Part shown: positions 22,377 to 25,344 of the stretch, one piece after another | Numbering within the stretch: position 1 is the first letter of the stretch | Layout of the letters: every line of letters starts with the position of its first letter | DNA from: Minisyncoccota bacterium | GTDB lineage: Bacteria; Patescibacteriota; Minisyncoccia; UBA6257; 2-01-FULL-56-20 | Direction of reading: 5' to 3' | Assembly: GCA_036510525.1 (NCBI GenBank) | Contig: DATCDU010000011.1 | Location: forward strand, 2,241-66,240 | Length of the DNA: 64,000 nt | The notes under the pieces: generated by a model | What the model was told of the DNA's origin: nothing | Databases searched by the model: none | What the model saw: only the letters and a program-made list of their open reading frames with translations | Translations under genes and position numbers: made by a program

Positions 22377-23105
22377 ATGAAAAAGTATTTGATCGGCGGG
22401 GTTCTTGTCATCGCGCTCATCGCGTATAGCATATTCGCCAACAACGATTCGTCGTCCGTTGCGGTTGCTCCGGCGACGGGGCCGTCGGGAACACCCAGCA
22501 CCACCGGGCCGACCTCAACTCCGACCACCACGCCGCCTTCCGGCAATCCGCCGGGAACCGCAACCTCAAGTGCCGCCGTTGGTTTCGGATTCGGCACCAC
22601 GGGATCCCAGGTCCTGACGCTCCAAAAATTCCTCATCACCAACAATTATCTCGCCGGGGTCTCGGCGCCGACCGGTTACTTCGGGCCGATGACGCTTGAG
22701 GCGCTCATGAAGTTCCAGGCCGCGAACGGTATTTCCCCGGCGACAGGATATACCGATGCGCAGACCTTAGCGCTGGTTAATAGTGGGGCTGGTTCGGTGG
22801 GCACCACCGCCACGACGACCGGCCAGTACAAAGACGGCACTTACACCGGCAGTGTTGCCGACGCGTTCTATGGAAAGCTTCAGGCAACGGTGGTCATCCA
22901 GGGCGGCGCGATCGTTGACGTGCAATTCCCGCAGGCGCCGAGCGGCGGACATTCAGGCCAGGTGAGCGCGTTCGCGCTTCCGCAATTGCGGCAGGAGGCG
23001 ATCACCGCGCAAAGCGCGAATGTCAACATCGTTTCCGGAGCGACGCAGGACTCCGAAGCCTTCCAACAGTCGCTCGCATCCGCGCTCGCAGAGGCCAAGA
23101 GCTGA
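22377..23105 (+). CDS. membrane-anchored extracytoplasmic protein with peptidoglycan-binding (PG_binding_1-like) domain and C-terminal FMN-binding domain carrying an SGAT flavinylation motif
   Basis: N-terminal signal anchor MKKYLIGGVLVIALIAYSIFA. Ser/Thr/Pro-rich linker. PG-binding-like segment GSQVLTLQKFLITNNYLAGV...GYFGPMTLEALMKFQAANGI. FMN_bind-like C-terminus with NVNIVSGATQDSEAF, the ApbE target motif [S/T]GA[S/T]. Confidence 0.65.
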   Translation: MKKYLIGGVLVIALIAYSIFANNDSSSVAVAPATGPSGTPSTTGPTSTPTTTPPSGNPPGTATSSAAVGFGFGTTGSQVLTLQKFLITNNYLAGVSAPTGYFGPMTLEALMKFQAANGISPATGYTDAQTLALVNSGAGSVGTTATTTGQYKDGTYTGSVADAFYGKLQATVVIQGGAIVDVQFPQAPSGGHSGQVSAFALPQLRQEAITAQSANVNIVSGATQDSEAFQQSLASALAEAKS

Positions 23106-23848
23106 TGAAAGAGACCCGCGTCATGATGGGCATGCCCATCACCATAGAAATCGTCGACGCAAAAGCGACCAACGATATTTTTAATGAGGTTTTCACCTAT
23201 TTTGGACACATTGACGAAAGGTTCAGTACATACAAATCGACGAGTGAAATAGAAGCCATCAACCAAGGCAAGCTTGCGCTCACTGATGCGAGTGAGGAGA
23301 TGCAGCTCGTCTTCGCGATGTGCGAGGAAACAAAACAACAGACCAAGGGCTACTTTGACATCAAAACGCCGGCAGGAAATTATGATCCGTCGGGACTTGT
23401 AAAAGGATGGGCGATCTGGAACGCGGCGAAGCTGCTCGAGAAAAAGGGATTTGAGAATTTTTATATCGATGCCGGCGGCGACATCCAACCGCACGGACAT
23501 AATGCGGACAGCAAAAAGTGGGCGGTGGGAATAAAAAATCCGTTCAACGAGGTCGAGAACGTCAAAGTGGTTTATGTTAGTGAGGAAGGCGTGGCCACTT
23601 CGGGCACTTACATCCGCGGCCTGCACATCTATAACCCGCATGGCGGGAATGAACCGGTCAGCGAGATCATATCGCTTACCGTGATCGGCCCGAATATCCA
23701 CGATGCGGATCGCTTTGCCACCGCTGCGTTCGCGATGGGCGCCGACGGAATCAATTTTATAGAGCAACTCCACGGCTACGAGGGATATATAATAGACAAG
23801 AACAAAGTCGCCACAATGACGACCGGATTCGACAAATACACTTCCTAA
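23105..23848 (+). CDS. apbE: FAD:protein FMN transferase (ApbE family), no signal peptide
   Basis: ApbE family blocks MGMPITIEIVD and GYFDIKTPAGNYDPSGLVKGWAIWNAAKLL...GFENFYIDAGGDI (my recall of the family blocks). ATGA overlap with the upstream gene. Confidence 0.8.
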   Translation: MKETRVMMGMPITIEIVDAKATNDIFNEVFTYFGHIDERFSTYKSTSEIEAINQGKLALTDASEEMQLVFAMCEETKQQTKGYFDIKTPAGNYDPSGLVKGWAIWNAAKLLEKKGFENFYIDAGGDIQPHGHNADSKKWAVGIKNPFNEVENVKVVYVSEEGVATSGTYIRGLHIYNPHGGNEPVSEIISLTVIGPNIHDADRFATAAFAMGADGINFIEQLHGYEGYIIDKNKVATMTTGFDKYTS

Positions 23849-23853
23849 ACACC

Positions 23854-25344
23854 ATGAACTTCATCGACCGATTCTTGAATAACATCACGATGTATCGGCT
23901 CGTGATGTACTACCTGATCATTCTCCTCGCGATCGCGGCGATCTTTGGCGCGGTCGGCATCCTCCCCTACAGCCCGATCGCCATCATCTTCTCCACGCTC
24001 TTCTTGGTGCTCACCGCGTGGGCGGCAAGCGGCATCTGCGCCACGATCATGAAAGTGCCGCAAAACTCGGAGTCGGCGTACATCACCGCACTCATCCTCG
24101 CGCTCATTATCACGCCCGGATTACCGAACGATGCTTCGACCGTCATCTTCCTCGCGTGGGCCGCGGTGCTCGCGATGGCCTCAAAATACGTTCTCACCAT
24201 TGATAAGAAACATATCTTCAATCCGGCGGCGCTCGCGGCGGCGGTGACGGCGCTCGCGTTCGGCGGTACAGCAAGCTGGTGGATCGGCGGCAATCTCGCA
24301 ATGCTGGCGTTCGTGATCGTGGGCGGCGCGCTCATTCTGCGCAAGATCCAGCGCTTTGACCTCGCGCTCACGTTCCTTGTGTTCGCACTCGCGAGTGATG
24401 TCGTGACGCACATCGGATTTGATCCTGTCTCAACCATTGAAAAGGCGCTTGTGCACACGCCACTCTTCTTCTTTGCCTCCATCATGTTGACGGAGCCGGT
24501 CACCACGCCGCCGACGCGCCGCTGGCGCATGATCTACGGCGCGATCGTCGGCGCGCTCTTCTCGCCGTTCATAGCAGTCGGCGCCGTCACCTCTTCGCCG
24601 GAGCTCGCGCTCCTCGTCGGCAATATCTTCTCTTATATAGTCAGCCCGAAGGGCAAGCGCGTGCTCACGCTCAAAGAAAAAGAATCGATAAGCGGCGATA
24701 TCCACCACTTTACCTTTACGCCAGATAAAAAACTGTCGTTTCGCCCGGGGCAATATCTGGAGTGGACGCTCGGCCATGAAAAAGTGGATGGGCGCGGCAA
24801 CCGGCGCTACTTTACGATCGCATCGTCGCCCACGGAGGACACGCTACAGTTCGGTATAAAATTCTATGAGCCATCGAGTAGTTTCAAAAAGAAACTTCAC
24901 TCGCTCAAGCCGGGCGATACGATCGTGGCCGGGGCTCTCGCTGGCGATTTCACATTGCCAAAAGATCCGTCGCAAAAATTGGCGTTCATCGCGGGCGGCA
25001 TTGGCATCACGCCGTTCCGCAGTATGGTAAAAGACCTTGTCGACCGGGGCGAGCAACGCGATGCAGTGCTATTCTATTCCAACCGCACAGCCGGCGAAAT
25101 CGCGTACCGCGATGTGTTCGATGAGGCAGCGCACAAGATCGGATTGAAGACCGACTACATCATCACGGGCAACGGCAAGCGCATTGACGCGGAAACTATC
25201 AAACGCGACATCCCCGATTACCACGAGCGCATGTTCTATATCTCCGGCACTCACGCGATGACGAATGCGTTCCACAAAACGCTCCGCGAGATGGGTGTGC
25301 CGATGACGCACATCAAGACAGACTTCTTCCCGGGATTTGCGTGA
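23854..25344 (+). CDS. polytopic membrane protein (about 9 TM, contains an NPA motif) fused to a C-terminal ferredoxin-NADP+ reductase-like FAD/NAD(P)-binding oxidoreductase domain
   Basis: C-terminal FNR-type motifs RRYFTIASSP (RxYS FAD-binding), GGIGITPFRSM (NAD(P)-binding) and a C-terminal aromatic residue. The N-terminal ~250 aa are hydrophobic with no recognisable heme-ligand pattern. Confidence 0.65.
   Translation: MNFIDRFLNNITMYRLVMYYLIILLAIAAIFGAVGILPYSPIAIIFSTLFLVLTAWAASGICATIMKVPQNSESAYITALILALIITPGLPNDASTVIFLAWAAVLAMASKYVLTIDKKHIFNPAALAAAVTALAFGGTASWWIGGNLAMLAFVIVGGALILRKIQRFDLALTFLVFALASDVVTHIGFDPVSTIEKALVHTPLFFFASIMLTEPVTTPPTRRWRMIYGAIVGALFSPFIAVGAVTSSPELALLVGNIFSYIVSPKGKRVLTLKEKESISGDIHHFTFTPDKKLSFRPGQYLEWTLGHEKVDGRGNRRYFTIASSPTEDTLQFGIKFYEPSSSFKKKLHSLKPGDTIVAGALAGDFTLPKDPSQKLAFIAGGIGITPFRSMVKDLVDRGEQRDAVLFYSNRTAGEIAYRDVFDEAAHKIGLKTDYIITGNGKRIDAETIKRDIPDYHERMFYISGTHAMTNAFHKTLREMGVPMTHIKTDFFPGFA

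Follow-up and report, generated by a model that had tools for sequence, protein, structure and literature searches.

The NQR/RNF-like flavinylation systems are a class defined by Méheust et al. in 2021 (eLife; PMC8238504), mainly in Actinobacteria and in the candidate phyla radiation (CPR). They combine an NqrB/RnfD-like membrane domain and an NqrF-like dehydrogenase in one protein, have an NqrC/RnfG-like partner that binds flavin mononucleotide (FMN), cluster with apbE, and have lost the flavinylated threonine of NqrB/RnfD. Huang et al. (2024, mSystems; PMC10979944/PMC11334425) modelled such a pair from Ktedonobacter racemifer with AlphaFold-multimer and report that Nqr/Rnf-like proteins do not conserve the flavinylation site of NqrB/RnfD. 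They propose that the FMN of the NqrC-like subunit samples a non-covalent flavin site of the NqrB-like subunit (PMC10979944). Here we describe three genes at 22377-25344 of a 64,000-nucleotide stretch of DNA from a Minisyncoccota bacterium (contig DATCDU010000011.1; the whole stretch is called the window below), which share the defining sequence traits of this class. Judged by its sequence, the locus is a member of the published class, and alignments and structural models indicate that it is probably a Paceibacterota (CPR) copy of an NQR/RNF-like flavin-based system for exporting electrons across the membrane. A first-pass annotation of the same DNA had proposed a compact flavin module. This reading is supported, but it had not recognised that the membrane domain is that of NqrB/RnfD, which places the module in a class that already has a name. 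The locus therefore defines no new kind of system.

The three genes, here called g1, g2 and g3, are co-directional and follow each other in this order on the forward strand. The first, g1 (22377-23105, +; 242 aa), encodes a membrane-anchored, peptidoglycan-binding, FMN-binding protein of the NqrC/RnfG type. It is followed by g2 (23105-23848, +; 247 aa), a compact, leaderless member of the ApbE family of transferases that move FMN from flavin adenine dinucleotide (FAD) to protein, and by g3 (23854-25344, +; 496 aa), which joins a membrane domain of the NqrB/RnfD fold to an FNR-type module. All three open reading frames (ORFs) that had been proposed as linked are present in the ORF listing, while the overlap between the first two, given earlier as ATGA, is in fact TGATG: a single nucleotide is shared between the g1 stop codon and the g2 ATG (...AGC TGA TGA AAG...). 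Only 5 nt separate g2 from g3. In the survey of Méheust et al., systems of this class have an N-terminal PF03116 and a C-terminal NqrF-like PF00175 within one protein, no more than five genes away from ApbE (PF02424) or FMN_bind (PF04205). Both domains are found in g3, with the ApbE gene 5 nt upstream and the FMN-binding gene before that. As in the systems studied by Huang et al., the flavinylated threonine of NqrB/RnfD is not conserved in g3, and the ApbE acceptor motif is present and aligned in g1, the NqrC/RnfG-like partner. The proteins encoded by g1, g2 and g3 are each 100% identical to database proteins of a metagenome-assembled genome (MAG) of Candidatus Paceibacterota (the g1 match is P0121 in our set), where NCBI names them 'peptidoglycan-binding protein', 'FAD:protein FMN transferase' and 'RnfABCDGE type electron transport complex subunit D', respectively.

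In Pfam, g3 matches NQR2_RnfD_RnfE (PF03116) over aa 146-262 (E 3.7e-12), followed by FAD_binding_6 and NAD_binding_1 (PF00175). Its N-terminal membrane domain (aa 1-265; 23854-24648, +) is more difficult to place from one sequence: a single-sequence phmmer search against the PDB gave noise only, and a profile built from 26 sequences was needed, which matches RnfD (E 2.4e-4) and NqrB (E 2.4e-3). The AlphaFold model has 10 transmembrane helices, one more than the approximately nine counted in the first-pass annotation. The positive-inside rule places the N-terminus, a TEPxTTPPTRR loop and the FNR domain inside, and an ASWW loop outside. An NPA motif had also been pointed out in this domain. The sequence is indeed present, but it is part of an FNPA common to RnfD, with which it aligns, and there is no aquaporin-type signature; an aquaporin-like reading was therefore rejected. 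In the profile alignment, residues 185-274 of NqrB correspond to residues 101-147 of g3, which has about 43 residues fewer. The FMN-bearing residue of V. cholerae NqrB, which we take to be Thr236, lies within this NqrB segment. What remains in g3 is a shorter, outward-facing loop, GGTASWWIGGN (aa 137-147; 24262-24294, +), in place of the longer NqrB/RnfD one. The consensus of this loop in the family is NQSASWWVGGN, in which A140, W142 and W143 are invariant and residue 141 is Ser or Asn, and no [ST]GA[TS] motif is found in the loop, (N/G)(Q/G)(S/T)ASWW(V/I)GGN. By these alignments the covalent-FMN loop of NqrB/RnfD is lost from the membrane domain of g3, and the loop with the invariant WW is a candidate for the pocket into which the FMN of g1 docks.

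The C-terminal domain of g3 (aa 266-496; 24649-25344, +), predicted to be cytoplasmic, carries the FAD and NAD(P)H motifs RRYFTIAS and GGIGITPF and ends in DFFPGFA; together with its Pfam matches, they bear out the expectation of an FNR/NqrF-like module. No Fer2 (2Fe-2S ferredoxin) domain was found in g3 with Pfam. The structural matches of this domain include the dehydrogenase domains of SpNOX and NOX5 as well as siderophore-interacting proteins. The ferric reductases of the NOX/FRE group, SpNOX for example, thus share with g3 both this structural match and the overall plan of a membrane-embedded electron conduit followed by an FNR-type dehydrogenase, but their conduit is a six-helix domain with two hemes, whereas that of g3 has the heme-free NqrB/RnfD fold and presumably uses flavins. 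The differences from Na+-NQR and Rnf proper are of another kind. No NqrA, NqrD or NqrE, and no RnfA, RnfB, RnfC or RnfE, were found at the locus, and no such conserved neighbour was found in 80 related loci. The locus has no 2Fe-2S centre, the NqrB-like domain lacks a site for covalent FMN, and the dehydrogenase is fused straight to that domain. In Na+-NQR and Rnf the electrons follow a semicircular path; here, the flow is presumed to go one way, outwards.

The protein encoded by g1 has a single hydrophobic segment (Kyte-Doolittle value 2.02), located directly after the initial MKK. We read it as a signal-anchor helix (aa 4-23; 22386-22445, +) with a predicted N-in/C-out orientation; the N-terminus may be called a signal peptide or an anchor, and g2 has neither. 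In 60 g1 homologues the net charge is +1.92 on the N-terminal flank and -0.07 on the C-terminal flank, with the N-terminal side more positive in 55 of them, and the linker of the FMN-binding subunit consists to 54% of Pro, Thr, Ala and Ser. Within the Pro/Thr/Ser-rich linker of g1 itself, a PG_binding_1 domain is inserted (aa 75-132; 22599-22772, +; Pfam E 5e-13, 49.5 bits against a cut-off of 23). We know of no cytoplasmic role for this domain. The insertion thus places the FMN domain outside the cell, independently of the charge bias, and g1 is predicted to be a single-pass N-in/C-out protein that its PG_binding_1 domain should tether to the wall. The insertion is found in approximately 11 of the 120 best g1 homologues and in none of the FMN-bind proteins of the 80 related loci, and it distinguishes the locus from the published NQR/RNF-like systems.

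The FMN-binding domain of g1 (aa 155-239; 22839-23093, +) aligns end to end with PDB 8p2a (chain A; E 2.8e-15), with VSGAT falling on VSGAT. The Pfam FMN_bind match, on aa 166-237, reaches 21.1 bits against a gathering cut-off of 22. PDB 8p2a is SaFMN3-D2 from Streptomyces azureus, a domain in whose crystal a threonine carries covalent FMN (PMC10339131). In the motif NIVSGAT of g1, the residue that aligns with this FMN-bearing threonine is Thr223 (codon 23043-23045, +), which is predicted to be flavinylated, and Y165 aligns with the stacking Tyr14 of SaFMN3-D2. Most of the 71 homologues from related loci have the motif (D/N)xVSGAT about 19 aa from the C-terminus. The earlier description of g1 as an N-terminally anchored protein with a peptidoglycan-binding domain and an FMN_bind domain containing IVSGATQDS is therefore confirmed in its domains and its motif, including the modifiable threonine. 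For SaFMN3, the closest homologue of the g1 domain with a solved structure, the potential is -184 mV and O2 acts as an oxidant (PMC10339131). Like CbFMN4 (PDB 8p2a and 8p2b; PMC10339131), it has small FMN-binding domains. SaFMN3 has three such domains in tandem and no known membrane partner, whereas g1 has a single one, together with an anchor, a peptidoglycan-binding domain and a presumed reductase encoded close by.

The second gene encodes an ApbE by its family profile (Pfam PF02424, E 1.1e-39, 137 bits against a cut-off of 25.6). Its AlphaFold2 model (pLDDT 92.4, pTM 0.90) starts directly at the first beta-strand, and Foldseek aligns it with all solved ApbE, FmnB and Ftp structures at query-normalised TM-scores of 0.81-0.89, the best match being Listeria FmnB (7esb, E 2.9e-20). 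The protein is approximately 70 aa shorter than the solved ApbEs. Compared with E. coli ApbE (4xgw), about 46 residues are missing from the middle region, but TSGTY165, H174-IYNP and ADRFAT201 are kept, and T165, S166, G167, Y169, H174, P178, A201, D202 and T206 are invariant in 50 g2 homologues. From work on the V. cholerae and E. coli enzymes, we take the TSGxY motif, the His of H-x-x-(D/N)-P and the A-D-x-x-x-T motif to be catalytic. By sequence and model, g2 is a complete but minimal ApbE.

It is worth asking whether the missing leader is a matter of annotation. No hydrophobic segment is found in g2 (the highest Kyte-Doolittle value over 19 aa is 0.87), and none of the 62 in-frame codons ahead of its start is ATG, GTG or TTG, which agrees with the first description of this ApbE as having neither signal peptide nor lipobox. 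A hidden leader was considered and rejected, the upstream in-frame stretch being Arg-rich, with neither a hydrophobic core nor a start codon. Export of ApbE as a g1-g2 fusion, by frameshift or read-through, is ruled out by the tandem TGA TGA at the end of g1; the spacing between g1 and g2 also differs among relatives, with a gap of 83 nt in locus L001 as an example, which counts against such a fusion as well. In about 64 locus homologues of g2, the maximal ORF begins at the same MK(E/Q)TR.(L/I)MGMP; any longer ORF that can be drawn adds an Arg-rich stretch in which no 19-aa window reaches the transmembrane threshold. Among database homologues, the best 120 come from several independent gene-calling pipelines, and every one of them is 237-263 aa long. 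A signal peptide or lipobox at the N-terminus is thus not possible in g2 or in either of these two sets of homologues, and the shared start together with the uniform length means that the leaderless ApbE is not an annotation error. The short form also occurs together with peptidoglycan-binding versions of g1: the apbE genes on the same contigs as the homologues P0252 and P0243 encode proteins of 249 aa. On these comparisons, this branch as a rule has a short ApbE without a leader. Outside the CPR, an uncultured Chloroflexia MAG (L078, on a 2.17-Mb contig, at approximately 4690-7509) has the same triad of FMN_bind, ApbE and NqrB-FNR genes, and its ApbE is leaderless as well, with 248 aa (MKQTHLSMGMPITLEVLD). 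The short ApbE therefore appears to be tied to the system, not to genome reduction in the CPR. The papers on NQR/RNF-like systems filtered on predicted signal peptides and do not discuss a leaderless short ApbE, and in the literature on NQR/RNF-like or CPR systems we found no discussion of the mismatch between such an enzyme and an extracytoplasmic substrate.

The triad is not peculiar to this genome. Homologues of g3 are abundant (7961 of the 8000 candidates scored have E<=1e-5), relatives were confirmed at no fewer than 589 sites in GTDB species genomes, and the best 80 of these at least 589 relatives were taken as the related loci. They are almost all from Patescibacteria MAGs, with the addition of Chloroflexia L078. 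Complete CPR chromosomes with the triad include OY970354.1, OY970358.1, OY970175.1, OY970290.1 and OY970195.1. Gene order was counted in the 75 loci that have at least 1.4 kb upstream of g3. FMN_bind, ApbE and g3 are contiguous in 53 of the 75, which is the co-occurrence in related genomes that a conserved module would predict; in 15, FMN_bind directly adjoins g3 and the ApbE gene is elsewhere or outside the view; two have ApbE and g3 only, and five have neither partner. At least one partner is therefore adjacent to g3 in 70 of the 75 loci, and in 14 there is no ApbE within 6 kb of g3. When the flanking ORFs of the 80 loci were clustered, no further conserved neighbour of the triad was found: the next best occur in no more than 16 loci, and these (e.g. 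GyrB and peptidases) look like a reflection of lineage synteny. With no other conserved neighbour, the triad looks like a self-contained module, and a strongly conserved one.

CPR bacteria, or Patescibacteria, are generally described as fermentative episymbionts that lack a respiratory chain. For such a cell the likely benefit of an electron-export system would be re-oxidation of NAD(P)H, reduction of iron, or both. In the proposed mechanism, NAD(P)H would reduce the FAD of g3, and the electrons would cross the membrane via a flavin that the NqrB-like domain holds non-covalently, as suggested by the riboflavin/FMN pair of NqrB/RnfD. They would then reach the FMN on Thr223 of g1, docked in the outer pocket that was emptied by the loss of the NqrB-type FMN site, as in the model of Huang et al. 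(2024). The reduced flavoprotein may finally pass electrons to an extracellular or wall-associated acceptor, with Fe(III), O2 and host or environmental quinones as candidates; no gene for it is found at the locus. This route from NAD(P)H through a membrane-bound FNR fusion to a flavinylated, wall-bound protein had already been suggested in the first-pass annotation. It is the same as the published model, and all tests at the sequence level agree with it.

A number of points weigh against this reading. The class has no biochemically studied member, and the path of the electrons, the flavin in between and the acceptor are all matters of inference. The FMN_bind score of g1 is 0.9 bit under the Pfam gathering cut-off, although the domain is secure because of the match to 8p2a. 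Neither the surroundings of the triad nor the larger window ORFs scanned yielded a gene for an acceptor, a flavin exporter or a quinone-related function. The predictions put the g2 enzyme in the cytoplasm but the one substrate domain encoded at the locus on the outer side, a discrepancy that was pointed out at the outset and that is real and conserved across homologues. Finally, when the Salmonella ApbE was deprived of its first 20 residues and hence cytosolic, it could not replace the exported enzyme (review PMC12052999).

A comparable system is the flavin-based extracellular electron transfer of Listeria monocytogenes, also a monoderm, in which electrons derived from NADH reach a surface flavoprotein that is flavinylated by an ApbE-family enzyme. 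There, the path includes the quinone pool, Ndh2 and EetA/B, whereas the present locus has the NqrB-FNR fusion and no quinone step is apparent. Among the window ORFs scanned, there is no Ndh2 with a C-terminal transmembrane segment, no EetA or EetB, no quinone biosynthesis gene and no PplA; the NCBIfam PplA model gives 17 bits against a cut-off of 325. Listeria FmnB, in the account given in PMC9973259, acts extracytosolically with flavin supplied by an ECF transporter, whereas g2 has no export signal. In this respect g2 is more similar to the cytosolic ApbE of K. pneumoniae and the ApbE domains of trypanosomatid fumarate reductases, which have no signal peptide and use cytoplasmic FAD (PMC12052999). 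The substrates of those enzymes are soluble and in the same compartment, whereas the one substrate domain linked to g2 is predicted to lie outside the cytoplasm.

Other explanations concern either the purpose of the electron flow or the compartment in which g1 is modified. The system could serve assimilatory ferric reduction, with the wall-tethered flavoprotein reducing Fe(III) for uptake. This would change the acceptor and not the machinery, and FNR-membrane fusions are classic ferric reductases, with SpNOX/NOX5 and siderophore-interacting proteins among the fold matches of g3; but no iron transporter or siderophore gene is found among the window ORFs scanned or the conserved neighbours of the 80 loci, and we regard this role as rather unlikely. 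Less probable still is a miniature NQR, i.e. a redox-driven pump in which electron flow through the NqrB-like domain is coupled to translocation of Na+ or H+ in the manner of the RNF and NQR complexes, which link electron flow to an ion gradient: NqrD/E or RnfA/E with their intramembrane 2Fe-2S centre, and a return path to a cytoplasmic acceptor, are absent at the locus. With regard to O2, one further ORF should be mentioned: at 8698-9300 (+), a 200-aa ORF matches the fatty-acid desaturase family (PF00487, E 4.9e-12, profile positions 39-231). Fatty-acid desaturases are oxygen-dependent enzymes. One would not expect such an ORF in a CPR genome, and it may have a bearing on O2 as the acceptor of electrons.

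As to the compartment, g2 lacks an export signal, and the FAD used to flavinylate g1 is therefore most likely cytoplasmic. The most economical reading, we infer, is that g2 would flavinylate the SGAT of g1 with cytoplasmic FAD before or during membrane crossing, and that the flavinylated chain would then be exported; we put this forward as a tentative possibility. As the SGAT is about 19 residues from the C-terminus, it would leave the ribosome only after translation has ended. The need of the exported ApbE for membrane association may be related to the delivery of FAD (review PMC12052999). The mismatch would disappear if the FMN domain of g1 faced the cytoplasm and the module were a membrane-bound cytoplasmic NAD(P)H:flavin oxidoreductase, and K. 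pneumoniae fumarate reductase is a precedent for a cytosolic ApbE with a cytosolic substrate (PMC12052999). Several features speak for the opposite orientation, however: the hydrophobic N-terminus after MKK and the positive-inside bias in 55/60 homologues indicate N-in/C-out, the linker is rich in Pro, Thr, Ala and Ser and contains PG_binding_1 in g1 and approximately 11 homologues, and the loop of g3 that is homologous to the flavin loop of NqrB is predicted to be outside. Of all the alternatives, we consider this the least probable. Almost as improbable is that g2 does not flavinylate g1 at all, and instead acts as a cytoplasmic FAD pyrophosphatase, in flavin trafficking or on another substrate, with an exported ApbE encoded elsewhere modifying g1. 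FAD pyrophosphatases do occur in the ApbE family, as described for Ftp of T. pallidum, only 64 kb of the genome are visible, and 14/75 loci have no ApbE within 6 kb of g3. Yet g2 lies between its presumed partners in 53/75 loci, its transferase-type motifs, including the His of HIYNP, are invariant, there is no second ApbE in the window, and the closest homologues share the same short form in 120 of 120 cases. A flavinylation motif in g3, which would have given a cytoplasmic ApbE a cytoplasmic substrate, was also looked for by eye and rejected: there is no [DN]xx[ST]GA[TS], and the TEPxTTPPTR loop, which is conserved and cytoplasmic, is dissimilar.

Upstream of the triad, a weak sigma-70-like sequence, TCGCCA-17-TATACT (22341-22369, +), ends 8 nt before the g1 start codon and is a candidate operon promoter. 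It matches 9 of 12 hexamer positions; with 6 such sites in the region, where shuffles gave 3.3 +/- 1.8, the match is not significant alone. Downstream, a gap of 610 nt follows g3 (25345-25954), with a strong promoter-like site at 25395-25422 (11/12 positions), an unsupported 117-aa ORF at 25457-25810 that has no Pfam match, and the best terminator-like hairpin of the region at 25831-25859; no Rfam family was found in the gap at the gathering threshold. The triad is flanked by genes for an M13 peptidase, unannotated proteins and an MFS transporter. Among the neighbours, a 447-aa protein (26615-27958, +) and a convergent, overlapping 171-aa protein (27920-28435, -) have no Pfam match at E<=1e-3 and recur near the triad in 11/80 and 9/80 loci, respectively, which could be due to lineage synteny or to a functional link. 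A 385-aa protein with an N-terminal hydrophobic segment and no Pfam match (19171-20328, -) is conserved upstream of the triad in 12/80 loci; by eye it may be sedolisin/S53-like, given its SGDDGA and GGTS motifs.

The remaining window is that of an ordinary CPR chromosome, with ParAB, IF-2, GyrB, GroEL, six tRNA genes and a polysaccharide biosynthesis cluster, and no second ApbE, FMN_bind or RnfD-like gene is found in it. The maximal ORF of the gene recognised by eye as GyrB (16917-19070, -) adds about 55 Lys/Ala-rich N-terminal residues, with a homologous fragment of similar N-terminus in locus L005, and a Lys/Glu-rich insert immediately precedes its C-terminal QRYKGLGEM motif. At 28540-29028 (+), a treble-clef zinc-finger protein of 162 aa (PF23477, E 9.5e-15) is overlapped by the maximal ORF 28761-29624 (+), by eye an EngB/YihA-type GTPase whose true start is probably well downstream of 28761. 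The large cell-envelope polysaccharide cluster (40149-59995) includes glycosyltransferases of families 1, 2 and 4, a Bac_transf priming transferase, a MurJ/Wzx-like flippase, epimerases/dehydratases, UDP-glucose dehydrogenase, a nucleotidyl transferase and a PfkB-cupin fusion.

The 2021 survey found extracytosolic flavinylation components to be "strikingly underrepresented" in the CPR, and it removed genes without a predicted signal peptide (PMC8238504). This filter is probably the reason for the apparent underrepresentation, since most CPR copies were probably removed by it. The survey reports 127 NQR/RNF-like clusters (PMC8238504), against at least 589 sites for g3 here; the genome sets differ (185,579 genomes here vs 31,910 in the survey), and the comparison is only indicative. 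To the named class, the present locus thus adds a peptidoglycan-binding variant by which the flavoprotein's topology is fixed, evidence for the short leaderless ApbE as the rule in this branch, and a sign that the system is far commoner in the CPR than the original survey indicated. The g3 family may be a main CPR route for the extracellular disposal of NAD(P)H electrons or for iron reduction. The conserved leaderless ApbE also raises the question of how a covalent flavin reaches an extracytoplasmic protein. If flavinylation does take place before export, neither an exported ApbE nor secretion of FAD would be needed, this would be the norm for a very large branch of CPR and Chloroflexota, and the PG_binding_1 variant would be a natural reporter of topology.

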